From an uncultured Clostridia bacterium (GTDB lineage: Bacteria; Bacillota; Clostridia; TANB77; CAG-508), in contig CALXMM010000005.1 in NCBI GenBank assembly GCA_944389475.1, forward strand, positions 735-64,734: DNA of 64,000 nucleotides, written 5' to 3'. Shown piece by piece: positions 6,184 to 34,519 of this stretch. The stretch's first letter is position 1. The number at the start of each line of letters is the position of its first letter. The notes under the pieces are model-generated. The model was not told where the DNA came from, made no database searches, and saw only the letters and a program-made list of their open reading frames with translations. Position numbers and translations under genes: made by a program.

Positions 6184-6887
6184 AAAATAAATATGTTGTG
6201 ATGATTCCGGCAAGAGGAGGTAGCAAGTCTATTAAACTAAAAAATATAAGGGAGATTGCAGGGCAACCGTTAATTTATTGGTCTTTAGATGCAGCTGTTA
6301 ATTGTGAGAGAGTAGAAAAAGTTTATGTGAGTACTGATTCGGAAATTATAAGGAATGTTGTAGAAAAATATGATAAAAAAAATAAAGAAAAAATTGTAGT
6401 AGTTGAAAGGAGTAAGGAAGCAGCTACTGATACTGCTACAACTGAAGATGTTGAATTTGATTTTTGCAATAGAATAAAAAATTTTGAAAATCTAATTTTA
6501 ATACAGGCCACGAATCCTATGATAACTACAAAAGACATAGATGGATGTATAGATGAATTTCCTAAATATGATAGCGTAGTTTCTACGGTTGTTCAAAAAA
6601 GATTTTACTGGGAAAAACAAAAAGATGGTAGTATAAAAGAAATAAAGCATGATATAAAAAAAAGACCTAGAAGACAAGAATGGGATGGAGTATTAGCAGA
6701 AAATGGATCAATCTATATAATTTCTCGTGAAAATTTATATAAAGGAAAGTGCAGGTTATTTGGAAAGATAGGAACTTATATTATGCCAGATGATTCATAT
6801 TATGAAATTGATGAGGAAACAGACTGGGAAATAATAGAAAAATTATTAATAGAAAGAAATAATAAAATAAAAAGCGAAAGAATGTAA
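6177..6887 (+). CDS. Acylneuraminate (CMP-nonulosonate) cytidylyltransferase family protein
   Basis: N-terminal MIPARGGSKSIKLKNI motif typical of the CMP-NeuAc/CMP-KDO synthetase family. It overlaps the synthase stop. Confidence 0.8.
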   Translation: MVKNKYVVMIPARGGSKSIKLKNIREIAGQPLIYWSLDAAVNCERVEKVYVSTDSEIIRNVVEKYDKKNKEKIVVVERSKEAATDTATTEDVEFDFCNRIKNFENLILIQATNPMITTKDIDGCIDEFPKYDSVVSTVVQKRFYWEKQKDGSIKEIKHDIKKRPRRQEWDGVLAENGSIYIISRENLYKGKCRLFGKIGTYIMPDDSYYEIDEETDWEIIEKLLIERNNKIKSERM

Positions 6888-7162
6888 AAAAAATTAAAGA
6901 GAAAATGTCAAAACTTTAATAGCTGGAAAGAATATTTTAATATAATAAAATTAAAAAAGTTGAAAATAAGTATTCTATTTTTGTGAATTAATAAAAATGA
7001 AAATATTGAATAAAATATTTATAACTTATATACATATCATATGTAAAATTAAATTTGTGACAATATGGAAACACTATATAAAGAAAGAATTTCAGACATG
7101 AGATGTTTAGAAATAAGTAAAAAAACTAATATTTTATGTAGAGAATAAAGAGTTGATATAAA

Positions 7163-7690
7163 ATGAAAGAAAAAAATAAGGCATTAGTGGAATTGTCTAA
7201 TATTCCAAATGTAAAAATATATTTTAATACAAAATGGTTCCTAAAACATTCTATGGGAGAAAATATGAATATAGCAGATATAATGATTAGAATTTTAGCT
7301 ATAGAAAATTATTATGGAAAAAATGACTTTGGATTTAAATTATATAATAAAATGCAAAATATTAGAGTAAGTTCAAATCCATTAATACCGCAAATTAGAG
7401 CAAATAATGAAGAAAGATTTAGAAAAATTATAAAAAGTTTTGAAAAAAATAATTTTATAGAAGATTATCCTATTATTATAAATGAGGATTTCAAATTATT
7501 TAATGGAACACATAGACTGGCTTGTTCGTTATTTTTTGATATAAAGCAAATTCCAGTCAAATTTGAAGAAAGAACTATTGAGAAACATCCAGATTATTCT
7601 TTAGAATGGTTTGAAAAGGTAGGTCTAGGAAACTACATACCTATTATAAAAAAGAAATATAAAGAAATAATAGGGGGAGAATATGAATAA
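7163..7690 (+). CDS. Hypothetical protein, possibly ParB/sulfiredoxin-like fold
   Basis: The FNGTHRLACS motif resembles the DGxHR motif of ParB-like nuclease domains. This is the only support. Confidence 0.3.
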   Translation: MKEKNKALVELSNIPNVKIYFNTKWFLKHSMGENMNIADIMIRILAIENYYGKNDFGFKLYNKMQNIRVSSNPLIPQIRANNEERFRKIIKSFEKNNFIEDYPIIINEDFKLFNGTHRLACSLFFDIKQIPVKFEERTIEKHPDYSLEWFEKVGLGNYIPIIKKKYKEIIGGEYE

Positions 7691-15338: not shown

Positions 15339-16724
15339 TTAATTATTTCCAAAGATAATTTCTATATTTTTTATTTTATCAAGAGATAAAGTGTTATCAA
15401 AATCAATTGTTAATACTGTTTGACCAACATTATTTTTACTAGTTGTAACTCCAGGTTCGTAGTAATAATAGTAATTTAAATTTTTATTCTCTGGAATTTG
15501 TATATTATCATCATATCTATTTAAACGTATAGTATAATCAGGTACATTTAAAGAAGTATTATCATTTAAAACTATTTCTAAACTAGTAGATGTAACTTTA
15601 TATGAGAATATCATAGAAATATTGCTTGTGTTATCAACAACTGGTACGAAATTCTTAGTTGTATCATCATATACTAATAAAAGTCGTAAATCACTAATAT
15701 ATTTTGGTACAGAAGATGAGATTGTTAAATTATTATCCAAAACAAAGTTTGTAGAATCCGGTGTTACATTTTCGGATTTTGTATTCTTTATGAGGTCAGT
15801 TCTTTTATTACCAAATAAAACAATCTTTTCATTTTTTTCTTCTTTTACAGTTGTATTAGCATATTTTTCTATATTGATTGTAACTATACTATTTTCATAA
15901 GTATAATTGAATTTATAGTAATCCCATTTTAAATTATCTTCTATAGTGCTTTTGAAATTAGCATCTTTATTAGAAATGCTAATAGATTGACCATCAAAAG
16001 AATAATTTACAACTACATTTTCACTTCTTAAACTGGCTATATTAATTATATATTCAACATCATATTTATCTATAAATCCTTTATTAGTCATTTTTTGAGC
16101 ATAATTACTTAAATATTCTAAGTTTGGAGTTTTAGTTGTATTACTTGTATGATTTGAAATATAAGTATTTATATATGTTGTTCCAACTAATAATGTTGGA
16201 ATATTAATTGCATAAATTATTATTGCAAAAATAATTAATAAAATAGTTCTTTTTATTTTGCTTTTCTTATTTAAATTATTATTTAAAAGTACAGATCCTA
16301 TCAAAATTAAAGGAATTATAATTGTACCTAAAATATAAATAGTAATTAAAAATAGATTATTTAAAGATGCTGACAAAACAAAGTTAAAAACAATACAAAT
16401 AGCAATTAAAATAGCTAAAATAATTAATAAAATAATAGGTCTTAATAATTTTTTATTGCTAAAATCCAATATTATTAATTTTATATATCTCGTTAAAATA
16501 TAACATGCTACAAAAAATAGTATTAATAGTGATAATGGATATAATAATATTGCAACAATTGATTGTAGACTAGTAAATCCAGTAAATAATACTATTAAAG
16601 GAGTAGAAAAAATAGAGAAGACCACATGTTTATAGAATAGTACTCCTAAAATAATACATGACAAAATATAAATTATTGGTGTTAGATGTTTCTTAAAAAA
16701 ATTTTTAATCGCCAAAAGCTTCAC
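15339..16724 (-). CDS. Membrane protein of unknown function (461 aa)
   Basis: A long ORF with a multi-TM N-terminal half and an extracellular-looking Asn/Thr-rich C-terminal half. Confidence 0.5.
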   Translation of the reverse strand: MKLLAIKNFFKKHLTPIIYILSCIILGVLFYKHVVFSIFSTPLIVLFTGFTSLQSIVAILLYPLSLLILFFVACYILTRYIKLIILDFSNKKLLRPIILLIILAILIAICIVFNFVLSASLNNLFLITIYILGTIIIPLILIGSVLLNNNLNKKSKIKRTILLIIFAIIIYAINIPTLLVGTTYINTYISNHTSNTTKTPNLEYLSNYAQKMTNKGFIDKYDVEYIINIASLRSENVVVNYSFDGQSISISNKDANFKSTIEDNLKWDYYKFNYTYENSIVTINIEKYANTTVKEEKNEKIVLFGNKRTDLIKNTKSENVTPDSTNFVLDNNLTISSSVPKYISDLRLLLVYDDTTKNFVPVVDNTSNISMIFSYKVTSTSLEIVLNDNTSLNVPDYTIRLNRYDDNIQIPENKNLNYYYYYEPGVTTSKNNVGQTVLTIDFDNTLSLDKIKNIEIIFGNN

Positions 16725-17955
16725 CTCCTATAACTTTACCTAATTTATTATCTATGTAAACAGTTACTCCATTTCCTATTTCATCTTCTCGAGAGAAACA
16801 GTATGCTGTTACTTCATTTGGTAAAACAGAATCAGTTTCGTTAGATTTTCTGGTAAAAAAGTTGTTAGGATGAACATTTTGAATTTTGCAAGTTTGCGAA
16901 TTTTTATCATAGCTACCAGCAATACGAGAAGCTTCATCAAATGCAGTATTAGCAATTTCTTTAGCTTGGTCTTCGGTTATCGAACTGGATGAATTAGTAT
17001 ATTCGTTAGAAAAAGAGTCAAAATCTTTTACAAAAATGTTTTCATCCAAATTATCTACTTGTTCATCATAAGTTCTTCTAGATTCATCTAAACTTGCTTG
17101 TTGGTCAACTGTAGATAAATCAGTATTATATATACAATCTGTATTTACTATTTTGCTTACAACTAATAAATGAGCAATATATTGGGCACCATAAGAATTA
17201 GGAACATCTTCATATGTATACCTTATATTTCCAACACTTACTTTAACAGTAATTTTAGGAACCATTGATGCTGTTAAGATTACGTCATAATCATTAAAGA
17301 TATCTTCGGTAATTTGGTCATCAAAAGCTAAATGACACATTTCTTGATATCTCTCATAGGTTTTCATATCTTGTATTTTTACTTGATAAATTTTATAATT
17401 AATATTTTTAAATTGTTGGGTATATTTATAATCTAAAATAAATTGATTTTTAGATATATATTCTTTATAATCTAAAGAATAGGACTTTTGCCCAACTGTT
17501 AGTTTTTTATCTAATTCTTTTTTTATTTTGTTTACATTTTTTAAATCTGTAGAACATATTTTTCCACCTGTATCTGATAGTTTAACCATTTCATCTTTTA
17601 ATGTATTACCAAAAGGAATGATATAGTTTTTACTTGCAGTTTCATAGTCAAATTCTAGGAATGTTTCATTATGGATATTATCGATAGTGTCTTGCGATAC
17701 AACATCTCCATCATTTGTATAGTTCTTTAATGTATTGCCAACTAAATTAATTAACTCATTATATTCATTAGATTTTTTTAAAAACTCATAATATTGATTA
17801 TTTGAATTTTTATAAACAATTCTATCTGGAAGAATAATTTCATCACCCAAAATTACTTCTGTTTTATTGTTCATAACATAGGGAACTAGAAATAAAGCAA
17901 CAATTAAAATAATAGCTATTATAATTAATAGCAAAACAATAAATACTTTTTTCAT
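16705..17955 (-). CDS. Secreted or membrane-anchored protein of unknown function (416 aa)
   Basis: N-terminal signal/anchor MKKVFIVLLLIIIAIILIVALFLV. It overlaps the downstream ORF by 20 nt, consistent with an operon. Confidence 0.5.
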   Translation of the reverse strand: MKKVFIVLLLIIIAIILIVALFLVPYVMNNKTEVILGDEIILPDRIVYKNSNNQYYEFLKKSNEYNELINLVGNTLKNYTNDGDVVSQDTIDNIHNETFLEFDYETASKNYIIPFGNTLKDEMVKLSDTGGKICSTDLKNVNKIKKELDKKLTVGQKSYSLDYKEYISKNQFILDYKYTQQFKNINYKIYQVKIQDMKTYERYQEMCHLAFDDQITEDIFNDYDVILTASMVPKITVKVSVGNIRYTYEDVPNSYGAQYIAHLLVVSKIVNTDCIYNTDLSTVDQQASLDESRRTYDEQVDNLDENIFVKDFDSFSNEYTNSSSSITEDQAKEIANTAFDEASRIAGSYDKNSQTCKIQNVHPNNFFTRKSNETDSVLPNEVTAYCFSREDEIGNGVTVYIDNKLGKVIGGEAFGD

Positions 17956-18160: not shown

Positions 18161-18607
18161 ATGATAGCAATAGGTGCTGATCATGGAGGATATAGATTAA
18201 AGGAAGAGATAAAAAAATACTTTGATGAAAATAATATAGAATATAAAGATTATGGAACATATTCAGAAGAAAGAACAGATTATCCAATTTATGCAAAAAA
18301 AGTTGCAGAAGCAATGGTTAATGGAACTGCAGACAAAGGAATATTAATTTGCAGATCCGGATATGGAATGACTGTAGTAGCTAATAAATTTAAAGGAGTA
18401 AGAGCTGCAAGTGTAACAAGTGTACAATATGCAAAAGCAGCAAAGGCAGATGATGACATAAATTTAATAACTTTATCAGGTGATAATACAAAAATAGAAG
18501 ATGCAATAAATATGATAAATGCATGGATTCAAACCGAATTTAAAGGTGGAAGATATAAAGAAAGGTTGGACATGCTAGAAAAAATTGAAAATGAAAATAT
18601 GAAATAA
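18161..18607 (+). CDS. rpiB: Ribose-5-phosphate isomerase B
   Basis: IAIGADHGGYRLKEEI and ILICRSGYGMTVVANK motifs of the RpiB/LacAB family. Confidence 0.9.
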   Translation: MIAIGADHGGYRLKEEIKKYFDENNIEYKDYGTYSEERTDYPIYAKKVAEAMVNGTADKGILICRSGYGMTVVANKFKGVRAASVTSVQYAKAAKADDDINLITLSGDNTKIEDAINMINAWIQTEFKGGRYKERLDMLEKIENENMK

Positions 18608-18619
18608 AGAGGTGTAAAT

Positions 18620-19867
18620 ATGTGGGGAGATATAGCAATAGCCTTTTTATTGGCTTTTATAACTGCATTTATGATGACACCATATTCTATAAAAATAGCT
18701 AAAAAAGTAGGAGCAGTTGATGTACCAAAAGACAATAGAAGAATGCATCATAAGTCAATACCAAGACTGGGTGGAGTTGCAGTAATTGCAGGTTTTGTTG
18801 TTTCATTTATATATTTAATTATTACATTATCAATAGAAGACCCATCAAAACTAAATTTATTTGGTGTAGAGCAGTATGGAAAGAAAATACTTGGTTTCTT
18901 TGTAGGTGTAATTATATTAGGAATTACATGTTTTATAGATGATGTAAAAACAATAAATCCATTAGCAAAATTATTTGGACAAGTATTGGCTGCATTAGCA
19001 GTTGTACTTTCTGGGATTAGAATAATAGAAGTAGTGCCACTATTTCAATCTGCAACACTTAACGAAGCAACTTCTATAGTCTTAACAATTATTTGGATAA
19101 TAGTAATTACTAATTCTATAAATTTAATGGATGGATTGGATGGACTATCCTCAGGAATTACAATGATTTCTTGCATATCATTGTTAATAATATTCTCACT
19201 TAATAATTCACCATTAATTGCAATTATAATGATTACAGCTTTAGCTGGAGCATTATGTGGATTCCTACCATTTAATTTTAATCCAGCCAAAACATTTATA
19301 GGTGATACCGGTTCTAATTTTTTAGGATTTACATTGTCAGTGGTTTCAATTTTGGGAGTTGCTAAAACATATACAGCGGTGGTTATTATTTTACCAGTTA
19401 TAGTTCTTGGACTTCCAATATTTGATACAGTGTGTGCAATATTAAGAAGATTGCATAAAGGAAAATCTCTTAAAGCAATATTCCAAGCAGATAAAGGACA
19501 TTTACATCACAGATTAGTTAGAAAAGGGTTTTCACAAAAACAAGCGGTATATATTTTGTATGGCATAAGTGCTTCATTTGGAATGTTTGCAGTTATATTA
19601 TTCGAAAGTGGAATAATGAAAGCAATTTCTTTTGCACTCATGGTAATTGCAGTAATTGCCTTAGGATATAGAAGTTTTTCTAGTTTAAGAGGTGAAGAAG
19701 GAACTATGTATGAATGCTCAAATTGTAAATATATTTATAATCCAAAAGTTGGAAATGAAACAGCCGGAATAGACCCAAACACAGAATTTTATGATTTGCC
19801 AGAGGATTGGAAATGTCCCGTTTGCGGAGAAAGAAAAGATATGTTTACACCATATGAAGAAAAATAA
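18620..19867 (+). CDS. MraY/WecA/TagO-family polyprenyl-phosphate GlcNAc-1-phosphate transferase fused in frame to a C-terminal rubredoxin domain
   Basis: A multi-TM body with NSINLMDGLDGL and GDTGSNFLGF motifs. Residues from 363 onward (nt 19706-19867) read MYECSNCKYIYNP..WKCPVCGERKDMF, a complete rubredoxin with CxxC and CPxCG. No stop codon separates the two parts. Confidence 0.85.
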   Translation: MWGDIAIAFLLAFITAFMMTPYSIKIAKKVGAVDVPKDNRRMHHKSIPRLGGVAVIAGFVVSFIYLIITLSIEDPSKLNLFGVEQYGKKILGFFVGVIILGITCFIDDVKTINPLAKLFGQVLAALAVVLSGIRIIEVVPLFQSATLNEATSIVLTIIWIIVITNSINLMDGLDGLSSGITMISCISLLIIFSLNNSPLIAIIMITALAGALCGFLPFNFNPAKTFIGDTGSNFLGFTLSVVSILGVAKTYTAVVIILPVIVLGLPIFDTVCAILRRLHKGKSLKAIFQADKGHLHHRLVRKGFSQKQAVYILYGISASFGMFAVILFESGIMKAISFALMVIAVIALGYRSFSSLRGEEGTMYECSNCKYIYNPKVGNETAGIDPNTEFYDLPEDWKCPVCGERKDMFTPYEEK

Positions 19868-19961
19868 AATATTATATTGCTAAAATAAAATAATAATAAT
19901 ATAATTAGGAAAAGCAAATTACCTAAATAAGGTAGATAAAAAAATTAAAGAGGTGATAAAT

Positions 19962-20117
19962 ATGTACGTTTGTTTAGCTTGTGGATATGTATATGATCCA
20001 GAAAAAGGAGATCCGGATGCAGGAATAGCTCCAGGAACAGCTTTCGAAGATATTCCAGATGATTGGGTATGCCCAATTTGTGGAGTTGGAAAAGACATGT
20101 TCCAAAAACAAGATTAA
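19962..20117 (+). CDS. Rubredoxin (51 aa, below the ORF-track cutoff)
   Basis: Translation is [62 protein letters not shown] lies upstream. CxxCG and CPxCG motifs are present. Confidence 0.9.
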
Positions 20118-20182
20118 TTAGTAATATGTAAATCAAATCTATGATGTGGTTTTAGTGTAAAATTTAAATTAAACTAAAGAAG

Positions 20183-20219
20183 TAATCTGTTGAGAGCATT
20201 AGTTATCAACAGATTATTT
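20183..20219 (+). terminator. Terminator candidate after rubredoxin
   Basis: TAATCTGTTGA / TCAACAGATTA hairpin followed by TTTA. Confidence 0.5.
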
Positions 20220-20282
20220 ATATGTAAAATAAATAAAACAGGGATTTTAAGGATTGTTTATAAATCCCTATAAGGAGATAGT

Positions 20283-21164
20283 ATGGAAAAGGATAATATA
20301 GAAAAATTTTTAGCATATAATGGAAGAATAGCTATAACTTGTGCAAATACTTCTTATTTAGTAGAAGAAGCCAGAAAGGTTCACGATTTAAGTCCTGTTG
20401 CAACAGCAGCATTGGGAAGATTACTAACAATGGGAGTAATAATGGCAAGTGATTTAAAATCAGAAAAAGATAATATTACTCTACAAATAAAAGGCGGAGG
20501 ACCAATAGGCAAAATGGTCGCTGTTGTAAACAAAAATTTGCAAATTAAAGGAACAGTAGATAATCCACAAGTAGATGCACCATTAAATGAATTTGGAAAA
20601 TTAGATGTTGGTGGTGTAGTTGGACAAAATGGATATTTGAATGTAATTAAAGACATTGGTTTAAAAGAGCCATATATTGGAGTTGTCCCAATTTCATCTG
20701 GAGAAATTGCAGAAGATTTTGCAAGATATTTTACAGAATCAGAGCAAGTAAGGTCAGCTGTTGCTTTAGGAGTATTGGTTGATAAAAATGGTGTTAAAGA
20801 TGCTGGTGGCTATTTGTTAACAGCTATGCCTGATGCAACAGAAGAAGATATTACAAAAATAGAAAAAAGCATATTTGCAGCAGGAGCAATGTCAAAAATG
20901 TTAGAAGATAATTTATCACTTTTTGATATTGCAAAAAAAGTTACTGGAGATAAACAGGTAAAAGTAATTGAAAAGGATATGCATCCAGAATATAAATGCG
21001 ATTGTAGTAAAGAGAAGATTGAAAGAGCATTAAAAGCATTGGACAAAAATGAATTAAACAAAATTATAGAAGAAGATGGAAAAGCAGAGATAATTTGCCA
21101 TTTTTGTAATAAAAAATATCAATTTTCTAAAGAAGAATTATTAGATTTAGTAAATAAAAAATAA
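20283..21164 (+). CDS. hslO: Redox-regulated chaperone Hsp33
   Basis: Hsp33 length and sequence, with the C-terminal zinc switch CDCSKEK...CHFCNKKY. Confidence 0.9.
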   Translation: MEKDNIEKFLAYNGRIAITCANTSYLVEEARKVHDLSPVATAALGRLLTMGVIMASDLKSEKDNITLQIKGGGPIGKMVAVVNKNLQIKGTVDNPQVDAPLNEFGKLDVGGVVGQNGYLNVIKDIGLKEPYIGVVPISSGEIAEDFARYFTESEQVRSAVALGVLVDKNGVKDAGGYLLTAMPDATEEDITKIEKSIFAAGAMSKMLEDNLSLFDIAKKVTGDKQVKVIEKDMHPEYKCDCSKEKIERALKALDKNELNKIIEEDGKAEIICHFCNKKYQFSKEELLDLVNKK

Positions 21165-21196
21165 TATTATGGATATAATATTAATAGGTGATTATT

Positions 21197-21442
21197 ATGA
21201 AGATATCTTATATTAAGTCAATTCATGATAATAGTAGTTTTAATTTCTTTAAAAATATTGGAATGAAAGGTGTAGAGTTAAAAGACCTAGAAAATGTGGA
21301 TAAGGTTTTAAATAGTTTAATAGATCAAAATTATACAACATTTTTTATAACAAATGAAGTTGCTGGTTATTCACAAGATCTATTTAAAAAATATTATAAT
21401 TCTAAGGATATTAATATAATAATCGCCAAAACAAAACATTAG
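21197..21442 (+). CDS. Small protein, weakly V-type ATPase subunit F-like
   Basis: An 81-aa ORF with an RBS before the ATG at 21197. The pattern MKISYI..FFKNIGMKGVEL..FFITNEVA resembles the ATP_synt_F family. No other V-ATPase genes are nearby. Confidence 0.3.
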   Translation: MKISYIKSIHDNSSFNFFKNIGMKGVELKDLENVDKVLNSLIDQNYTTFFITNEVAGYSQDLFKKYYNSKDINIIIAKTKH

Positions 21443-21510: not shown

Positions 21511-22056
21511 ATGATGTCTTTTGATAATTACATATATGCTAATTTTAATTTAGAATTAAATAAAATTATAAAAAAAGTAAATGAAAAGAAGTATTCAAAT
21601 CTAATATTTATTTGTATTGGAACAAATAAAATAGTTGGAGATAGTTTGGGACCGATAGTTGGAGAAATTTTAAAACAAAACTTAAAAAAGAAAAATGTAT
21701 CCATTATAGGAGATTTAAAGGAAAATGTAAATATAAAAAATATTTCTAAATATATTAAATATATAGAAAACAATTATACAAAGCCATATATTATAAGTAT
21801 AGACTCCGCATTATCAAAGACAATTGCCCCAGAAAATGTATTTATTATAAAAAAGGGGCTAATACCGGGAAGCGCCTTAAAGAAAGAATCAAAAGAAATA
21901 GGAAATATTTCTATAAAAGGAATTGTTGGAAGATATGATAAAAATTCATTAAAAAATTTTTATAACTTAAAAACTGTGGATTATAAATTAATACTGCGAT
22001 TTTCAAAAAATATTTCAAAAATTATATTAAAAAGTATAAAATTTCTAAATTTGTAA
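21511..22056 (+). CDS. yyaC: Spore protease YyaC-family protein
   Basis: FICIGTNKIVGDSLGPIVGE motif characteristic of YyaC/GPR-like proteases. Confidence 0.7.
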   Translation: MMSFDNYIYANFNLELNKIIKKVNEKKYSNLIFICIGTNKIVGDSLGPIVGEILKQNLKKKNVSIIGDLKENVNIKNISKYIKYIENNYTKPYIISIDSALSKTIAPENVFIIKKGLIPGSALKKESKEIGNISIKGIVGRYDKNSLKNFYNLKTVDYKLILRFSKNISKIILKSIKFLNL

Positions 22057-22092
22057 AAAATTTATATAAATACAAATTTAGAGGTGATACAT

Positions 22093-22431
22093 ATGGATAT
22101 GAAAAATATGGTTGTAATAAGAAATTTACCTTCGAATATTGTTGAGGAAGCCTGGGTTGTTATTAAACCGGAGGTGAAAAATAAAGAAAAAGAGCTTATT
22201 AAAAGAATGAAAAATAATAATTTTAGTAGCAAAGCAAAAACAAGTTATGTGTTAGAAGAGGCACAAACTGTAATTGCAGATTATTTAAAAAATATAAATA
22301 GTTATAAAGATAAGAAAAAATATAATGATATTATAAAAAAATATAATAAGCAAAAGAAAGTAAGTCTTATATTATTTGGAGTATTAATGATAATGCTAAT
22401 ATTTCTTATTGGAGATAAATTATTTCTTTAA
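22093..22431 (+). CDS. Hypothetical protein with a C-terminal TM anchor
   Basis: AGAGGTGA RBS before the ATG at 22093. The sequence is Lys-rich with a C-terminal hydrophobic helix. Confidence 0.45.
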   Translation: MDMKNMVVIRNLPSNIVEEAWVVIKPEVKNKEKELIKRMKNNNFSSKAKTSYVLEEAQTVIADYLKNINSYKDKKKYNDIIKKYNKQKKVSLILFGVLMIMLIFLIGDKLFL

Positions 22432-22496
22432 ACATAAATACCAAACCTTATGAATATATTGTATAAATGTATTACTAAGGAAGAGGTGTTTTTTTT

Positions 22497-23354
22497 ATGG
22501 AAAGAGTATTATCAACAGAAGAAAGAATTAGAAGAGCAGAAGAAGTATATAGAAATAAAAATAATATTAAACAAGAACATCCAAGGCATATAGCAAGTAA
22601 AAGTAAAAATAGAATATTAAAAAAGATGATAATTCAAATTATTGTTTGTTTAAGCATATATTCTATATTTTATTTTTTTGAACATTCAGATGATTTATTC
22701 TCAAAAGATATGCTTAATAAAACAAATGAAATTATGGGATATGATATAAACTTTGATGAATTGTATAATAATTTTATGAATTGGCTACATTCTATGAATT
22801 TATTTACAAATGATGTGGTAAATGAAGTTACTAATAATACTACAAATGAAATACTAAATGAGATTAATGCAAATGAAGTTTTAAATGAAAGTATCGGTGG
22901 AGCGGTAGAAGAAGAGACACCAACGAATTTATCACAAATGGAAATTGATGCAAATGATATAAAGAGTAAGTACAATTTAATAAAACCGCTTACAGGAACG
23001 ATTACATCAAGATTTGGACATAGGGAACCGACAACAGCCACAGTTCCTAAAAATCATACGGGAATAGATATTGCTGCAAATACAGGTACTGTAATATATG
23101 CTGCATTGGATGGAGTAGTTAAAATTGCTTCAAGTGAAGGGGATTATGGTAATCACTTAAGGATTGAAAAAGATGATGTAGCAATTTATTATGCTCATTG
23201 TAATAAATTATATGTTAAAGAAGGAGATTATGTAACTCAAAACCAACCAATTGCAGAAGTGGGAGCCACAGGAAATGTAACTGGTCCACATTTACATTTC
23301 GAAATAAGAAAAGATGACAGATATGTAGACCCTGATATGATTTTAAATTTCTAG
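22497..23354 (+). CDS. M23/LytM-domain membrane protein in the SpoIVFA position
   Basis: A TM helix after the basic N-terminus and a C-terminal M23 domain with HTGIDI and HLHFEI. It lies directly upstream of a SpoIVFB-type M50 protease. Confidence 0.7.
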   Translation: MERVLSTEERIRRAEEVYRNKNNIKQEHPRHIASKSKNRILKKMIIQIIVCLSIYSIFYFFEHSDDLFSKDMLNKTNEIMGYDINFDELYNNFMNWLHSMNLFTNDVVNEVTNNTTNEILNEINANEVLNESIGGAVEEETPTNLSQMEIDANDIKSKYNLIKPLTGTITSRFGHREPTTATVPKNHTGIDIAANTGTVIYAALDGVVKIASSEGDYGNHLRIEKDDVAIYYAHCNKLYVKEGDYVTQNQPIAEVGATGNVTGPHLHFEIRKDDRYVDPDMILNF

Positions 23355-23371
23355 GCTAGAAAGAGTGTAAA

Positions 23372-24028
23372 ATGGAATTTAAAATAGATATAAAAATATT
23401 TTTAATTGCACTAGTATTTTTACTGGTTAATCAAATTGATATGTATATATTATTTATGCTATTTGCAATTATACATGAATGTTTTCATCTCTTAGCAGGG
23501 ATAATTTTAGGATACAAAGTAAAAAGTATGCAGATTATGCCATTTGGATTATCAATTTGCTTTAAAGAAAAAGAAGAGGAATATAATACCAAGGTTAGAA
23601 AATCAAATATTAATAATTTAAAGAAAATAATTATATTAATGGCAGGACCATTTTCAAATATAGTTATTGCTTTTATTTTTTTGAGCTTAAATATAATAGA
23701 ACCTGTTTATATAAATATATTGATTGCAATTTTTAATTTATTACCAATATTTCCATTGGATGGAGGTCAAATATTAAATAGGGTATTAAGAATTATATAT
23801 GGAAATTTTGAGGCTTATAGAATAAGTAACTATATTAATAATATAATAATGTGCATTATTACAGCATTGGCGAGTATAGGAATATTATATTTTAAGAATA
23901 TAGCAATTCTTTTTATTGTTATTTTTATGTGGTATTTAACAATAAAGGAAAATAAAAAATATAGGGAAATAAGAAAATATTTTAAATATTTTCACAAACT
24001 GGACAAAAAAAGTAATTATAATATATAA
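23372..24028 (+). CDS. spoIVFB: Site-2 (M50) intramembrane metalloprotease, SpoIVFB-type
   Basis: HECFHLLAG (HExxH) and NLLPIFPLDGG motifs in a polytopic protein. Confidence 0.75.
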   Translation: MEFKIDIKIFLIALVFLLVNQIDMYILFMLFAIIHECFHLLAGIILGYKVKSMQIMPFGLSICFKEKEEEYNTKVRKSNINNLKKIIILMAGPFSNIVIAFIFLSLNIIEPVYINILIAIFNLLPIFPLDGGQILNRVLRIIYGNFEAYRISNYINNIIMCIITALASIGILYFKNIAILFIVIFMWYLTIKENKKYREIRKYFKYFHKLDKKSNYNI

Positions 24029-24054: not shown

Positions 24055-24735
24055 ATGGTTAGTGAAAATATTTTGATAGTAGATGATGAATCACGAATGA
24101 GAAAATTAATTAAAGATTTTTTGGCTCAAAAAGGATATGGTATTTTAGAAGCTGGAGATGGAGAAGAAGCCCTAGAAGTTTTTGAAGAAAATCAAAATAA
24201 AATAAATTTAATATTATTAGATGTAATGATGCCTAAATTAGATGGTTGGTCTGTTTTAAGACAAATAAGACAGAAATCTCAAGTGCCTATAATAATGCTA
24301 ACTGCAAGAGGAGAGGAACAGGATGAATTGTTTGGATTTGAATTGGGAGTGGATGAATATATATCTAAACCATTTAGTCCAAAGATATTGGTTGCAAGAG
24401 TTGAAGCAATTTTGAAGAGAACTAGAAAAGATACTGACAAAGTTAAGGATTATGGAGGTATCACAATAGATCCTGAAGGAAGAACTGTAAAGGTTGATGG
24501 TAAACAAATAGATTTAAGTTTAAGAGAGTATGAACTATTAAAATATTTAGTAGATAATGAAAACATTGCTTTATCAAGAGATAAAATATTAAATAATGTA
24601 TGGAATTATGATTATTATGGGGATTCAAGAACCATAGATAGCCACATAAAAAAGATTAGACATAAATTGGGTAAAAAAGGAAAATATATAGAAACAATGC
24701 GTGGCGTTGGATATAAATTTGAGGTAAAAGATTGA
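24055..24735 (+). CDS. OmpR-family response regulator
   Basis: Receiver domain (ILIVDDE..LLDVMMPKLDG) plus a winged-helix output domain (RTIDSHIKKIRHKL..RGVGYKF). Confidence 0.9.
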   Translation: MVSENILIVDDESRMRKLIKDFLAQKGYGILEAGDGEEALEVFEENQNKINLILLDVMMPKLDGWSVLRQIRQKSQVPIIMLTARGEEQDELFGFELGVDEYISKPFSPKILVARVEAILKRTRKDTDKVKDYGGITIDPEGRTVKVDGKQIDLSLREYELLKYLVDNENIALSRDKILNNVWNYDYYGDSRTIDSHIKKIRHKLGKKGKYIETMRGVGYKFEVKD

Positions 24736-26234
24736 AAAAGTTAAAGAAAAGATATAATTCTATACGTTATAAACTATTTGGAACACTTGCTGTTGCGGTA
24801 ATAATAATAATTTTATTTTTAATTATATTAAATAATATAGTTTTAGAATCCTTTTATTTATATACGAAGCAGGGGGCTTTAATAGATATATTTAACGAAG
24901 TAAATAAAGCATATAATACTAATCAATCAGAAAAATTTATTACTAATTTATTATCTGGTTATGCTGCAAAAAGTAATTATGATATTATATTAGAAACACA
25001 GGATGGAATAAATTTATATACATCAAACGAAAACTTTATTCAGACAATAGATGAAATAAATGATATGAGGATTGAAAATAAAAAAAATATAATTTATGCT
25101 AATAAAAATATGAACATAAAAAAAGTTAAAGACCCTAAAGATAATAATACATATATACTATTATCAGGATATTTAGATAATAACTATAATTTATATATAA
25201 GAATGCCAATTTCATCAATTCAAGAAAGTGTAAGGATATCAAATACATTTTTATATTTAATAGGTGCAATTACTTTGGTAATTGCTGGAATATTAATTAC
25301 ATTTATATCTAAAAGATTTACAGAACCAATAGAGGAATTGAATGATATAGCAGAAAAAATGTCAAAACTAGATTTTAGTAAAAAATTTCATCCAAAAGAT
25401 GTTGATGATGAAATAAATACATTGGGAAAAAGTATTAATATTATGTCAGATAAACTAGAGGCAACAATAGAGCAATTAAGAAATTCTAACATAGAACTAG
25501 AAAAGGACATAGAAGAAAAATCACAGATAGAACAAATGAGAACACAATTTATCTCAGATGTTTCACATGAGCTTAAAACTCCAATTGCTTTAATACAGGG
25601 ATATGCAGAAGGATTAGTAGAAAATGTTAATACGGATGATGAAAACAGACAATTTTATGCAAATGTAATTTTGGATGAAGCAAATAAAATGGACAAATTA
25701 GTAAAACAATTATTAGAACTTATGAAACTTGAATATGGAAAAAGAGAATTTCAAAATGAAAACTTTAATATTGTTGAATTAATACAAGAAGTTATTAGAA
25801 AATCCAAAGTAATGCTTGAAGAAAATCATATTGAGGTTAGAAAAGATATGCCGGAAGAAGTTATGGTATATGCTGATGAATTCTATATTGAACAGGTTGT
25901 AACTAATTATTTTACAAATGCAATAAAACATGCAAAAGAAGTCTTTAATGAAAAATATATTCAAATAAAAATAGAAACAAAGACTAAGAATAATAAAGTT
26001 AGAATATATGTATTTAATACAGGAGACAATATAGCCGAAGAGAATTTACAAAGAATTTGGAGACGTTTTTATAAAGTTGATGCATCAAGAAATAGAGCTG
26101 ATGGAGGAACTGGAATTGGATTAGCATTAGTAAAAGCAATAATGAATAATTATAATAATGATTATGGTGTAGAAAATAAAGATACTGGTGTAGAATTTTA
26201 TTTTGACCTTGATAAAGAGCAGAAAGAAGAATAA
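24732..26234 (+). CDS. Sensor histidine kinase (two TM, HAMP, HisKA, HATPase_c)
   Basis: H-box FISDVSHELKTP, N-box NAIKH, and G-box GGTGIGLALV. It overlaps the regulator stop. Confidence 0.9.
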   Translation: MKKLKKRYNSIRYKLFGTLAVAVIIIILFLIILNNIVLESFYLYTKQGALIDIFNEVNKAYNTNQSEKFITNLLSGYAAKSNYDIILETQDGINLYTSNENFIQTIDEINDMRIENKKNIIYANKNMNIKKVKDPKDNNTYILLSGYLDNNYNLYIRMPISSIQESVRISNTFLYLIGAITLVIAGILITFISKRFTEPIEELNDIAEKMSKLDFSKKFHPKDVDDEINTLGKSINIMSDKLEATIEQLRNSNIELEKDIEEKSQIEQMRTQFISDVSHELKTPIALIQGYAEGLVENVNTDDENRQFYANVILDEANKMDKLVKQLLELMKLEYGKREFQNENFNIVELIQEVIRKSKVMLEENHIEVRKDMPEEVMVYADEFYIEQVVTNYFTNAIKHAKEVFNEKYIQIKIETKTKNNKVRIYVFNTGDNIAEENLQRIWRRFYKVDASRNRADGGTGIGLALVKAIMNNYNNDYGVENKDTGVEFYFDLDKEQKEE

Positions 26235-26467: not shown

Positions 26468-27082
26468 GTGGTGATAGTTATATGTAACTATAGTCATAAA
26501 AATATTATTTTATTATCTTTAATAATTTCATTGATTGTTTTTATTTTTTTAAATCAAATATTTTTTAAAAATCAAAGTCAAATTTTTGACAATTCTTTAG
26601 AAAAAATTATCCCGGATAATGTACAAGTAGAAATACAAATGCCTAACAATGCTGTTGAGCAAAATTATGTTAATCAAGTTGCTACAGCAAATTTCAATTC
26701 ATCTCTATGGCAAATAGAAATTCCAAAAATAAATTTAGTAGCACCAATAGAAGAAGGCACTACAACCGAAATTATGAATGAATATGTAGGTCATTTTACA
26801 GAAACACCTAAAGATAATGGCAATATAGGTCTTGCAGCTCATAATAGAGGTTATAGGGTAAATTATTTTGAAAAACTAAAATTACTAAAAGAAAATGATT
26901 TAATTATTTATACTTATAAAGGAAAAGTTTCCAAATACAAAGTTAATCAAATTGGAATTATAAAAGATACGGATTGGAGTAAATTAGAAAATACAAAAGA
27001 AAATAAATTAACATTAATAACATGTTTAGAAAATGAGCCGGAATATAGAAGATTTGTGCAGGCTATAAAAATAGAGAATTGA
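26468..27082 (+). CDS. Sortase-family transpeptidase
   Basis: N-terminal TM anchor, catalytic His (LAAHN), TLITC Cys motif and a downstream Arg. The start codon is uncertain (GTG at 26468). Confidence 0.8.
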   Translation: MVIVICNYSHKNIILLSLIISLIVFIFLNQIFFKNQSQIFDNSLEKIIPDNVQVEIQMPNNAVEQNYVNQVATANFNSSLWQIEIPKINLVAPIEEGTTTEIMNEYVGHFTETPKDNGNIGLAAHNRGYRVNYFEKLKLLKENDLIIYTYKGKVSKYKVNQIGIIKDTDWSKLENTKENKLTLITCLENEPEYRRFVQAIKIEN

Positions 27083-27094
27083 AAGGAGACAAAA

Positions 27095-28348
27095 ATGAAA
27101 AATTTAATTATAAAATTTATTGCAGTATTTAGTATTATATTAATTATTCTAAATGCTATATCTATAAAAGCATTTGCAAATATAGACAAAAAGAATTTAT
27201 ATTCTATAGGAGATTGTGGCAGATTACTAAAAAAAGGAGATATTGTTGTAAAAACATATATTGTAGTATATAACGAAAATGGAAAAGAGTATCCAGCATA
27301 TTGTTTGGATAAGGATAAGGCTGGAGTAAGTGATAGTATCAATTATTCTGTAGATTTGGATGGGGTAATTAAAAATGTATATATATGGAAAGCTATAACA
27401 AATGGTTACCCATATAAAACACCGGAAGAAATGGGATGTAATACTATTGGGGAGGCTTTTATGGCAACAAAAATGGCTGTATATTCTGTGCTATATAATT
27501 ATACAATAAATGATTTCTCTCCAATTGGTGAAGCTGGACAGAGGACATGGAATGCTTTAAATAATATACTATTAAAAGTTAATGATGGTAATAATAATCA
27601 AATATCATCAAATTTAAATATAATAGAAGAAACTGAAGAATGGAAAGAAAATAAAGAAATGCAAGGATATATAAGTAAAGATTTTAGTGTTAAATCTGAT
27701 GGACCAATTAATTCATATACTATATCAAAAGAAGGAGGAACAGATGGAGTAATTATAACTAATTTGGACAATGAGATTAAACAAGAATTTAATGCAAATG
27801 AAAAATTTAGAATTACAATACCAATAAGTGAATTAAGTGATGGTGGAAACATGAAATTAAAAGCTGTAGCAAATGTTGAAACTAAGCCAATATTTATTGG
27901 TAGAGCTGCAAATTCTTCTAATCAAGATTATGCCATAACAGGGGTTTCATATGAAAATGGTACTGGAGAAAAAGAAATTTATTATGGAAAAAATGAGACA
28001 AAAATAAAAATAATTAAAAAAGATGAAACAGGAGAAAAAAATTTAGAAGGTGCAATATTTCAATTATTAAATCAAAACAAAGAAATTATTATTTCAGAAA
28101 TTAGAACCAATAAAGATGGAGAGGCAATATTAGAGAATATAATTCCTGGTACATATTATTTAAAAGAAATCCAATCACCTGCGGGTTATATCTTATATGA
28201 TGGACTTATAGAGATAAGACCTGAGTATAATGAGGAATTAACAATAACAATGAAAAATACGAAGGAAGATATACCGGAAATAAATGTTCACACAAATGAA
28301 TTAGGATTTAAGAATGAAGTAAAAAAATTACCAAAAACAGGAATGTAA
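27095..28348 (+). CDS. Surface protein with an N-terminal thioester-type (TQXA-like) domain and a SpaA/Cna-B-type domain. It ends at LPKTGM without a hydrophobic tail.
   Basis: Signal peptide, AYCLDKDKAG and ITNGYPYK motifs, a GAIFQL..NKDGEA..PGTYYLKEIQSPAGY fold signature, and a C-terminal LPKTG followed by Met then stop. Confidence 0.7.
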   Translation: MKNLIIKFIAVFSIILIILNAISIKAFANIDKKNLYSIGDCGRLLKKGDIVVKTYIVVYNENGKEYPAYCLDKDKAGVSDSINYSVDLDGVIKNVYIWKAITNGYPYKTPEEMGCNTIGEAFMATKMAVYSVLYNYTINDFSPIGEAGQRTWNALNNILLKVNDGNNNQISSNLNIIEETEEWKENKEMQGYISKDFSVKSDGPINSYTISKEGGTDGVIITNLDNEIKQEFNANEKFRITIPISELSDGGNMKLKAVANVETKPIFIGRAANSSNQDYAITGVSYENGTGEKEIYYGKNETKIKIIKKDETGEKNLEGAIFQLLNQNKEIIISEIRTNKDGEAILENIIPGTYYLKEIQSPAGYILYDGLIEIRPEYNEELTITMKNTKEDIPEINVHTNELGFKNEVKKLPKTGM

Positions 28349-28459
28349 AATCAAATAGTTGTCGAAATTTCATTGACAGATATTTTTCAAAAATATATAA
28401 TTGTGAAAGAATAAAACCAATGAAAAATGAGAAATATTCAAATAGGAGGAATATTTGTA

Positions 28460-30244
28460 ATGAAATTTCGTGAGAAAAAAGATAATAAAAAATTAAAAAG
28501 AATAAGTTTAATAGTGTTAATAGTAATCGTGATAGTAGCGGTTATAATTGGAATTGTAATTGCTGTAAATAAAAGCAAAGAAAAATATACAGTAGAAAAA
28601 ATAAATAGTTCAGATATAAATTACTATCGAATTATTAGTGATGGAAAATCAGGTGTAATAGACAGAAATGGAAATGTTATTATTAGTCCTGAATATAATA
28701 CTATAAAAATTCCAAATCCTAAAAGACCTATATTTGTTTGCATTTACGACTATGATGCAACAACAGGTGAATATAAAACAAAAGTATTAAATGAGCAAAA
28801 TCAAGAAATATTAACAGATTACCAAGATGTTAACACTATAGAAATAAAAGAAATCGTAAGTAGTATTCCATACGAGAAGACAGTATTACAATATCAAAAA
28901 GATGGTAAATATGGAATAATTGATTTTGATGGAAAAGAGATTACTAAACCAATATATGAGGAAATAAAAAATATGCCATATAGAGAAGGTGAATTGGTTG
29001 TAAAGAAAGATGGTAAATATGGTGTTATTAATATAAATGGTGGAAAATTGTTAGACTATAAATATGATTATATAACAGGAGATAATTACTATAGTACGGA
29101 TAAAGAATATGCTCTTGATGGTTATATTGTAGGAATAAATGATGAAAATGGTAAAATGCAGTATGGATATTTAAATAGTAATAGAGACCAACTTCTAGAC
29201 ACAACATTTGACAAAATATATAGAATGAACAATGTAGAAGATGATGATAATATTTATTTAGTAGTAGAAAAAGAGGGAAAGACTCAATTATATAAAAATG
29301 ATAAGTTATTATTAGATAATGATTATCAATCAATTAATTATAATGAAGATAGTAAATTATTAATACTACAAAAAGATAATAAATATGGAGTGACAGACCT
29401 AAATGGTAAACAAATATTAAATGTAGAATATGACCAAATTCAAATACCGGGTAATTATATAACTGCGACTAAGGAAGGAGTTACAGAAACATATAATTTG
29501 TCAGGAGAAAAGCAAGCTAACCCTCAATATACAAATGTTATAATGACTGATAATGAAAATTATTATATAGCTATAGATTCAAATGATAAATATGGTGTTA
29601 TTTCTAGAGATGGTCAGGGAATAATACCAAACCAATATAATTATATTCAATATTTATATGATAATTACTTTATAGTAGGAGGAGATTCTGGTAAATCTGG
29701 AATAGTTAATGATAAAGGAGAGGAAGTAATTCCTATACAATATGAAGTTATTCAAAAATTAGACAATAGTGATGTTATCCAAGCTGTATATGGAAATATA
29801 TTAGAATTATACAATAAACAAATGTCTAAAATATTAGAAATGGAAAATGGAAAATTAGAAGTTAACGACAATTATATTAAAGTATATTCTGATACTGCGA
29901 CTCAATTTGTAGGAACAGATGGAACATTAAAAACAGATTTTGAAATCTTCCCTAATAATACTCTTTATGCATCTGAAAAAGATGGAAAATGGGGATTTGT
30001 TGATAATAATAATAATGTAAAAATTGATTATCAATATGATAAAGTAACAGAATTAAATGAATTAGGATTTGCAGGAATTAAGAAAGATGGAAAATGGGGA
30101 GTAATAGATAGGGATGGAAATGTTATTATACAGCCTATTTATGAAATCCCAGAACAAAATGGTGAGCCATCTTTTATAGGAAAATATTATAAAGTCATTT
30201 CTGGTTATGAAGAGGAATACTTTACAGATGATATAAATGAATAA
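28460..30244 (+). CDS. Membrane-anchored WG (KWG) repeat protein
   Basis: GGAGGA RBS before the ATG at 28460 and one TM. There are many repeats of the type DGKYGIIDFDGKEITKPIYEEI. Confidence 0.7.
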   Translation: MKFREKKDNKKLKRISLIVLIVIVIVAVIIGIVIAVNKSKEKYTVEKINSSDINYYRIISDGKSGVIDRNGNVIISPEYNTIKIPNPKRPIFVCIYDYDATTGEYKTKVLNEQNQEILTDYQDVNTIEIKEIVSSIPYEKTVLQYQKDGKYGIIDFDGKEITKPIYEEIKNMPYREGELVVKKDGKYGVININGGKLLDYKYDYITGDNYYSTDKEYALDGYIVGINDENGKMQYGYLNSNRDQLLDTTFDKIYRMNNVEDDDNIYLVVEKEGKTQLYKNDKLLLDNDYQSINYNEDSKLLILQKDNKYGVTDLNGKQILNVEYDQIQIPGNYITATKEGVTETYNLSGEKQANPQYTNVIMTDNENYYIAIDSNDKYGVISRDGQGIIPNQYNYIQYLYDNYFIVGGDSGKSGIVNDKGEEVIPIQYEVIQKLDNSDVIQAVYGNILELYNKQMSKILEMENGKLEVNDNYIKVYSDTATQFVGTDGTLKTDFEIFPNNTLYASEKDGKWGFVDNNNNVKIDYQYDKVTELNELGFAGIKKDGKWGVIDRDGNVIIQPIYEIPEQNGEPSFIGKYYKVISGYEEEYFTDDINE

Positions 30245-33703: not shown

Positions 33704-34519
33704 TTGAAGGAAAAAATTACTATATTAATTGCTGATGATAATGTCGATTTTACAAGAACATTATCTGCATATTTAGAAAATGTTGAGGATTTTGAAGTTG
33801 TAGGTGTGGCTAAAGATGGAAATGAAGCTTTAGAAATTATTAAAGGAACACATCCAGATGTATTATTATTGGATGTAATAATGCCACATTTGGATGGAAT
33901 TGGAGTTTTGGAAAAATTAAACGAAACAACAATGACCAAAAAGCCAATAAGTATAATGTTATCTGCAGTTGGGCAGGACAAGATTACGCAAAAAGCAATT
34001 GCATTAGGTGCACAATATTATGTGGTAAAACCATTTGAGATTGATGTATTGGTAAAAAGAATAAGAGATATAAAATATTATCAACCTACTCAAAATAATA
34101 ATTTTATAGCAAGAGAAAGTAGGCCACAATACATAGATATATCTCCAGAAGAGAAAAAGGATGAAAGAAATTTAGAAGCTTTGGTAACTAATTTAATTCA
34201 TGAAGTAGGCGTACCAGCACATATAAAAGGATATCAATATTTAAGAGAAGCAATTATGATGGTAGTAAAAGATATAAATGTAATAAATCAAATAACAAAA
34301 CAATTATACCCTGATATAGCCAAGAAATTTCATACAACACCAAGTAGAGTGGAACGTGCAATACGACATGCAATCGAAGTGGCATGGAGTAGAGGAAAAG
34401 CAGATGAAGTAGAAAATATATTTGGATATACTGTATCTGCTACAAAAGGTAAACCAACAAATAGTGAATTCATAGCTATGATAGCAGATAAGTTAAGACT
34501 AGAATTAAAATCAGCTTAG
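33704..34519 (+). CDS. spo0A: Stage 0 sporulation master regulator Spo0A
   Basis: Receiver domain followed by the Spo0A-specific C-terminal domain ([37 protein letters not shown]). TTG start with a GGGGGA RBS. Confidence 0.95.

Follow-up and report, generated by a model that had tools for sequence, protein, structure and literature searches.

Why should a membrane enzyme that needs no electrons carry a rubredoxin at its C-terminus? The question is raised by a gene in a 64,000-nucleotide stretch of DNA from an uncultured Clostridia bacterium (GenBank assembly GCA_944389475.1, contig CALXMM010000005.1, positions 735 to 64,734), hereafter called the window, in whose own numbering all coordinates are given. 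The gene, located on the plus strand at 18620..19867, encodes a protein of 415 residues in which a TagO/WecA-like polyprenyl-phosphate N-acetylglucosamine-1-phosphate (GlcNAc-1-P) transferase (PNPT) is continued by a rubredoxin. The PNPT reaction (UDP-GlcNAc + Und-P -> Und-PP-GlcNAc + UMP, where Und-P is undecaprenyl phosphate) is redox-neutral, and an electron carrier therefore has no catalytic role in it. The initiating transferase and peptidoglycan synthesis compete for undecaprenyl phosphate; how bacteria regulate the former, be it for wall teichoic acid, for secondary cell-wall polymer or for O-antigen, is to our knowledge poorly understood. The analysis presented here leads us to propose that the fused rubredoxin is probably an accessory module that regulates the enzyme or docks a partner.

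A first reading of the locus from sequence alone had described a transferase reading frame (ORF) that runs without a stop codon into a full rubredoxin (C366-S-N-C369 and C399-P-V-C402-G, beginning at M363, nt 19706), and this description holds. The 415-residue ORF is uninterrupted and contains two Pfam families, PF00953 Glycos_transf_4 (GT4) at residues 91-246 (E 2.9e-37, 128.6 bits versus a cut-off of 27) and PF00301 Rubredoxin at residues 364-409 (E 7.6e-18, 64.7 bits versus a cut-off of 23). The sequence-only reading had allowed for a stop codon that was missed through sequencing error. Such an error, or an assembly artefact, is ruled out by the occurrence of the identical ORF in many independent assemblies and by its conservation across species. 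The exact 415-residue sequence is indexed in 69 assembly-collection blocks and was counted on 50 contigs; the 23 contigs that were read stem from JGI, ENA and NCBI (GCA_949283685.1). A sibling protein belonging to the same 90% cluster is present on 102 contigs, one of which is 1.73 Mb long. Both Pfam domains are found in all 120 best database homologues (67-92% identity, 411-417 residues). Furthermore, we surveyed the 80 best loci in a species-representative genome collection, and in 80/80 a single continuous frame of 409-416 residues leads from the start of GT4 to the stop codon behind the rubredoxin, with CxxC...CxxC present in every case. An arrangement of orthologues as two adjacent genes, the other outcome that had been envisaged, was never seen: no split tagO/rubredoxin pair occurs among these loci, the non-fused loci L085 and L086-L090 have no rubredoxin gene beside tagO, and none was found beside a non-fused tagO gene in the relatives examined.

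The fusion is thus real and conserved in more than 80 species of uncultured gut Clostridia. The fused loci go under the names Clostridium sp. CAG:354 or CAG:343, Candidatus Onthocola, Candidatus Merdicola or simply "Clostridia bacterium", all of them uncultured gut Bacillota, and the carrier group, an abundant one, comes from human, chicken, rabbit, goat and mouse samples. In a library of representatives at 50% identity the fusion was seen only as fragments (P0122, P0123), the fused family collapsing there into very few clusters; this library set the outer boundary of the family, not its internal diversity.

How strongly is the rubredoxin part held by selection? The ratio of nonsynonymous to synonymous substitution rates (dN/dS) was determined from 628 sequence pairs with identities of 80-97%. 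It is lowest in the rubredoxin domain (0.069), higher in the GT4 domain (0.106) and highest in the 10-residue linker that joins them (0.326). The four cysteines as well as Y371, Y373, F390, W397 and F409 are invariant in 81/81 sequences. Taken together, these values and the invariant cysteine and aromatic core argue that the domain is functional and constrained at least as much as the enzyme; its metal-binding fold is under purifying selection that is stronger than that acting on the transferase. A neutral or artefactual fusion, caused by an assembly or sequencing error or by a recent and functionless stop loss, could appeal to the absence of the domain from some close relatives, in which it is evidently not essential. 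This explanation is effectively refuted by the identical ORF in many assemblies, by the occurrence in at least 80 species and by a domain dN/dS below that of the enzyme, and we give it practically no credence.

The linker (residues 353-362, 19676..19705) is the fastest-evolving segment of the protein. It varies in length and sequence among orthologues, and residues 356-360 have pLDDT values <50 in the predicted structure. It also contains the Shine-Dalgarno (SD)-like sequence AGAGGTGA at 19687-19694, 11 nt ahead of the in-frame ATG at 19706 (M363), from which, according to the sequence-only reading, the rubredoxin might also be made separately. The element is indeed present, and the window and its closest relatives (L001-L008, L010) share AGAGGTGA and the ATG at this spacing, as would be expected if an overlapping two-gene arrangement gave rise to two products. 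The column of M363 in the 81 sequences, however, holds methionine in only 23, next to arginine (19), glutamine (19), lysine (13) and serine (5), such that most orthologues have codons that are unable to initiate. In addition, the linker sequence is not conserved (dN/dS 0.33) and the frame has been kept by selection across 80 species. An internal translation start is thereby ruled out as a conserved feature, separate translation of the rubredoxin did not stand up as a general claim, and we regard the formation of two products as very improbable. The tryptic peptide GEEGTMYECSNCK, which spans R357 to K370, begins in the linker upstream of M363.

What kind of enzyme carries the rubredoxin? The PNPT membrane domain (residues 1-352, 18620..19675) was delimited by PF00953, sequence motifs, hydropathy and comparison of an AlphaFold2 (AF2) model using Foldseek. 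The best NCBIfam model is TIGR02380 wecA (ECA_wecA) with 114.9 bits; since its equivalog cut-off of 326.05 is not reached, we file the protein as WecA/TagO-like and not as an enterobacterial WecA. Bacterial GlcNAc-1-P transferases are characterised by the motifs DDxxD/K/N, NxxNxxDGxDG and, for UDP-GlcNAc recognition, HIHH (PMC5222938). In a set of 57 sequences the corresponding catalytic motifs are invariant, D107-D108-V-K being located in cytoplasmic loop 2 and N165-S-I-N168-L-M-D171-G-L-D174-G in loop 3, and the same applies to H294, H296 and H297 of the HIHH-type motif H294-L-H296-H297 in cytoplasmic loop 5. Hydropathy analysis yields 11 transmembrane (TM) segments, which agrees with the number published for bacterial WecA, 10 to 11 (PMC5222938). 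The loops 22-51 and 269-311, which are rich in lysine and arginine (8 and 10 K/R, respectively), mark the inside, and all catalytic motifs lie together with both of these loops on the same predicted side of the membrane. The predicted topology is accordingly N-out/C-in and would place the fused rubredoxin on the cytoplasmic side, next to the catalytic loops. In the AF2 model, helices 306-330 and 332-357 follow loop 5 and lead into the low-confidence linker 356-360. With Foldseek, the membrane part matches MraY (5jnq, E 9e-10, TMt 0.73) and human DPAGT1 (6bw6, TMq 0.63), and a match to MraY chains is also obtained at the sequence level (E 1e-12). Taken together, these features point to GlcNAc-1-P transferase activity. 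With WecA and TagO (TarO) the protein has in common the GT4 domain, three motifs (DDxxK, NxxNxxDGxDG and the HIHH-type HLHH), 11 predicted TM segments and a C-terminus predicted to be cytoplasmic; what sets it apart is its C-terminal rubredoxin. We know of no characterised WecA or TagO with such a domain.

The pathway in which the enzyme acts can be approached through its relatives. Some proteins of 42-51% identity are fused to a UDP-GlcNAc 2-epimerase (P0124, P0152), which we take to be the domain known from the MnaA/WecB enzymes of linkage-unit synthesis, and in another PNPT relative the partner is a GT1 transferase (P0213). A non-fused orthologue of 62% identity with the same rpiB-tagO synteny is encoded close upstream of a gene for a polysaccharide pyruvyl transferase. 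The epimerase and GT1 fusions and the pyruvyl transferase neighbor would fit an enzyme that initiates a cell-wall glycopolymer. Attachment of a further domain behind TM11 is in itself nothing exceptional. Besides UDP-GlcNAc 2-epimerase and GT1, the C-terminal partners of TagO-like PNPTs include a metallo-beta-lactamase fold, CoA_binding_3 and a response-regulator receiver domain, the latter in P0216 (further examples are P0124, P0152, P0213, P0146 and P0189), and the C-terminus of these enzymes appears to be a general fusion hot spot. All of these share the attachment point with the protein studied here, but none of their partners is a metal or redox domain.

Is the fused domain (residues 363-415 with Cys366/369/399/402, 19706..19867) still an ordinary rubredoxin? 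Its overall relationship to the rubredoxin of Clostridium pasteurianum (CpRd) is close. Residues 363-414 align with CpRd 3-54 (E 1e-13), and Foldseek superimposes the tail of the model on C. pasteurianum rubredoxin with a root-mean-square deviation (rmsd) of 0.6 Å over 52 residues. The two CxxC knuckles that form the Cys4 site, the aromatic core and the predicted fold are shared, and iron binding by the fused domain may be inferred from them. A canonical CpRd-type protein is further characterised by a CxxCG first knuckle and a hydrophobic rim consisting of V8, L41 and V44. The window's fused domain lacks this combination and carries N368, K370 and E404 at the positions of V8, G10 and V44. The same tendency is apparent throughout the 81 sequences: residue 368 (CpRd V8) is mostly E, N or Q (36, 17 and 16 sequences), residue 370 (CpRd G10) is K in 71, R in five and G in five (K/R in 76/81) and residue 404 (CpRd V44) is E in 74/81 and V in five. 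The five sequences with G370/V404 constitute a basal, canonical sub-clade. The clade of the window (76/81 sequences) has furthermore exchanged CpRd D14, D19 and P20 for N, N and E. G10, L41 and V44 tune the potential of the Fe(SCys)4 site and its accessibility to solvent, and crystal structures of the rubredoxin mutants V44A, V44G and L41A are among the structural matches. In short, the fused domain differs from CpRd by being tethered to a membrane enzyme, by a CxxC-K/R knuckle and by polar or acidic residues in place of V8 and V44.

The same genome offers a direct comparison, since a second, free rubredoxin of 51 residues is encoded downstream at 19962..20117 on the plus strand. It had been recognised in the sequence-only reading behind a spurious antisense ORF, and we can corroborate it: two longer ORFs on the minus strand (19919..20098 and 19945..20136) overlap it in antisense, an SD sequence (GAGGTG) lies at 19950-19955, and it matches PF00301 (E 3.5e-25, 88.2 bits) and NCBIfam RubredRD (NF045768; 100.3 bits, cut-off 90). 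The fused domain scores 66.3 bits with NF045768 and falls below this cut-off. Free rubredoxins adjoining the fusion gene are 92% identical to each other and 71% identical to CpRd versus 58% to the derived fused domain. With a net charge of -3.1 the fused domain is less negative than the free rubredoxins (-6.9) and CpRd (-7). The fused domain of the window's clade can therefore be regarded, as judged by its sequence, as a derived subtype with a diverged metal-site periphery and a less acidic surface, while the free copy is canonical.

These differences bear on the alternative that the protein is in essence a membrane-tethered Fe(Cys)4 electron carrier for which the transferase serves mainly as an anchor. 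Putative partners of such a carrier would be a reductase detoxifying oxygen or reactive oxygen species, a radical SAM enzyme or some lipid-modifying enzyme near the membrane. The invariance of the four cysteines and of the complete rubredoxin core is in line with this possibility, and so is the basal sub-clade, whose fused rubredoxin is fully canonical and 83% identical to the free ones. In some strains radical SAM genes are inserted directly after the fusion gene. A natural precedent is AlkB-AlkG, an integral membrane enzyme and a C-terminal rubredoxin in one polypeptide (PDB 8f6t; PMC10113152), in which the fusion serves electron delivery. AlkB, however, is a diiron oxygenase that needs electrons, which a PNPT does not. 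The neighborhood of the fusion gene offers no redox partner, NADH:rubredoxin oxidoreductase, rubrerythrin, flavodiiron protein and desulfoferrodoxin all being absent from the window ORFs scanned. Moreover, it is precisely the metal-site periphery and the acidic surface that have been altered in the window's clade, with a canonical free copy kept, and the strictly conserved GT4 catalytic motifs show that the enzyme is not a mere anchor. A tethered electron carrier is consequently an unlikely explanation.

How did the fusion arise, and can the enzyme do without its appendage? In a neighbor-joining tree of the GT4 part, the fused loci L017, L056, L063, L068 and L070 are placed at the base together with the non-fused P0121. 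These five basal loci encode the canonical fused rubredoxin (CxACGY...GDPD...CPLCGVGK) already mentioned. A homology search seeded with L056 revealed that the basal group is large and contains many members of 361-372 residues that have only PF00953 and are 80-84% identical over GT4. The fused L056, L063 and L070 and the non-fused L086 and L089 have the upstream genes era-yqzL-recO in common. Non-fused relatives whose GT4 part is 83-87% identical end with ...KLKEEENEEK* (...GYKEFFKLKEEENEEK*), exactly where the fused form goes on (...KLKEEEKGMYKCMACGY; ...KLKEEEKGMYKC...). The domain is missing from close relatives that end exactly at the linker; it is therefore accessory and not required for catalysis. 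The simplest reading of these data would be that TagO acquired a housekeeping rubredoxin at its C-terminus in a single fusion event, that the rubredoxin domain was subsequently lost in some lineages, and that it diverged in the window's clade where a canonical free copy was kept. As to gene order in the basal canonical clade, L056 has mreB/mbl (6538-7407) after the fusion gene and era-yqzL-recO, not rpiB, upstream.

Taken together, the short tether, the constrained fold, the remodelled and less acidic surface, the presence of a canonical free copy and the dispensability of the domain argue for an accessory module on the cytoplasmic face, and it is on these grounds that we consider a regulatory or docking function probable. 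An 11-TM TagO/WecA-type transferase would initiate the linkage unit of a cell-wall glycopolymer from UDP-GlcNAc and undecaprenyl phosphate, and a linker of about 10 residues after TM11 would hold a Cys4 metal domain of rubredoxin fold on the face of the catalytic loops, where it could regulate the enzyme or dock a partner protein. The state of the domain (Fe2+/Fe3+, loss of the metal or oxidation of the cysteines) might serve as the input that ties polymer initiation to redox, oxygen or iron status. Within this proposal, redox- or metal-responsive regulation is a serious possibility, and docking that is independent of redox state is a somewhat weaker one. The sequence-only reading had suggested that synthesis of the envelope is coupled to the sensing of redox state or oxygen. 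This idea is plausible and receives some support from the remodelled metal site and from the accessory nature of the domain. Its most specific version, namely that the domain works as a switch, reversible and responsive to redox state, oxygen or iron, which gates the first committed step of glycopolymer synthesis, and that the fused copy arose by duplication and neofunctionalisation of a housekeeping rubredoxin, is put forward only tentatively.

Control of an enzyme by a rubredoxin-like domain is in fact not without parallel and is known from PknG. Among the PNPTs themselves, the receiver domain of P0216, which sits at this very C-terminus, is a precedent for a regulatory module. Another comparison is offered by LapB (YciM), which inhibits LpxC; its rubredoxin domain, which binds LpxC, is crucial for this inhibition (PMC11046580). 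In that case, too, a rubredoxin-type Cys4 domain belongs to a membrane-anchored protein and acts on the cytoplasmic face, the comparison being made at the level of the fold class. The committed step of an envelope glycolipid, lipopolysaccharide, is controlled there by protein contacts and not by any known electron transfer (PMC11046580). On the other hand, LapB is an adaptor composed of tetratricopeptide repeats and a rubredoxin domain that acts on the separate proteins LpxC and the protease FtsH, whereas the domain described here is fused to the enzyme itself.

Several points speak against a regulatory or docking module. Loss of the domain in close relatives means that any regulation it exerts is dispensable. 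The GT4 positions that set the derived-rubredoxin clade apart are confined to E149, V300, Q308 and F320 and do not form a clear co-evolving interface. The N-out/C-in topology is a prediction only, and the AF2 model is of only moderate quality (pLDDT 75.9, pTM 0.70).

Does the gene neighborhood assign the fusion protein to a functional unit? Four genes follow each other on the plus strand between 18161 and 21164, rpiB, the fusion gene, the free rubredoxin gene and hslO. The gene rpiB (18161..18607) encodes a ribose-5-phosphate isomerase B of 148 residues (PF02502, E 1.5e-47). It ends 12 nt before the start of the fusion gene, whose SD sequence (AGAGGTG) is found at 18609-18615; the gap is free of any terminator-like site. 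As rpiB is also located directly upstream of the fusion gene in 73/78 related loci, the two genes are probably co-transcribed. Further downstream, the evidence for a promoter-like TTGCTA-17-TATAAT (19877..19905, plus strand) ahead of the free rubredoxin gene is weak; across the region promoter-like matches show no excess over shuffled sequence (25 versus 27.6). A terminator-like hairpin with a 14-bp stem and an A/U-rich tail follows at 20180..20219 on the plus strand (folding energy -24.8 kcal/mol, z -3.6 versus shuffles). It is succeeded by hslO (20283..21164, plus strand), encoding the redox-regulated chaperone Hsp33 with 293 residues (PF01430, E 1e-93; NF001033, 304.4 bits versus 244), in which the C-terminal zinc-centre motif CxC...CxxC is present as KCDC and CHFC. 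The position of hslO as the next gene after the free rubredoxin had been read correctly.

The grouping of the fusion, the free rubredoxin and hslO into a tight module, on the other hand, did not hold up. The free rubredoxin gene adjoins the fusion gene in no more than 24/81 loci, an island of 6.4 kb separates the two in some strains, the hairpin intervenes before hslO, and the relation of hslO to the fusion gene is one of synteny only. The hslO gene lies downstream of the fusion gene in 54/77 loci, in 41 of these within 700 nt (<=700 nt), and in 13/54 insertions of >700 nt separate the two. Neither the non-fused relatives examined nor 4/5 basal fused loci had it as a neighbor. Membership of hslO in the same operon is ruled out by the hairpin at 20180-20219 and by the variable spacing, and its downstream position is a clade-level conserved gene order, not evidence of coupling. 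The island comprises six genes, which encode a HAD+radical SAM protein (580 residues), an SDR protein, a radical SAM protein, a PNP_UDP-like protein, another radical SAM protein and a PfkB kinase. It is present in L081 (11368-17592), L082 and L084, all of which encode the identical fusion protein, at a site that corresponds to the spacer 19868-19961 of the window; the window itself and L083 are without it.

Some further features of the region deserve mention. Between hslO and a DUF1256 gene, an ORF of 84 residues (21188-21442) matches PF01990 (V-type ATPase subunit F) weakly (E 1.4e-5) and has 81-89% identity in close relatives. On the other side, two large minus-strand ORFs of 461 and 416 residues with overlapping ends (15339-17955) are divergent from rpiB and have no Pfam family; the 416-residue protein is 44-69% identical in close relatives. 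Rfam and tRNA scans detected nothing in or near the region, the only hits being three tRNAs at 62.1-62.5 kb. Elsewhere in the window, sporulation-type genes at 21511-24028 and 33704-34519 encode a DUF1256/YyaC-like protease, an M23 peptidase, an M50 peptidase and Spo0A. This gene set points to a spore-forming low-GC lineage, despite an apparently small genome as judged by the contig of about 1.7 Mb that carries the sibling protein. A two-component system (24055-26234) is followed by genes for a sortase, a SpaA-type pilin and a WG_beta_rep protein (26468-30244), which suggest a sortase-assembled pilus locus. An NgoPII-type restriction endonuclease gene beside one for a C-5 cytosine methylase and the split recombinase-domain ORFs that come next (40539-42405 and 45008-46226) look like a restriction-modification or mobile element.

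What, then, does the fusion mean? Public databases already contain the sequences together with their Pfam architecture. Record names follow either one half of the protein or the other, JGI using the transferase and NCBI "rubredoxin", the latter for instance in the case of the 411-residue protein P0041 (MBS6253028.1 and others), and the label "rubredoxin" on membrane enzymes of 411-415 residues hides the PNPT part. New is the description of a PNPT with a putative metal-thiolate accessory domain at its C-terminus. The expectation that this architecture is uncharacterised is borne out by our literature search, which found no paper joining rubredoxin to WecA, TagO or undecaprenyl-phosphate glycosyltransferases. 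The fusion exemplifies how a housekeeping electron carrier appears to have been recruited and remodelled as the appendage of an enzyme, and a natural PNPT with a conserved metal-thiolate domain provides a tractable handle on the question whether glycopolymer initiation is regulated post-translationally. Should the domain indeed act as a switch, this would, as far as we know and as the searched literature shows, be the first PNPT directly controlled by a built-in metal-thiolate sensor, and strict anaerobes would then throttle the initiation of the polymer as well as their consumption of the shared undecaprenyl phosphate when their cytoplasm becomes oxidised.

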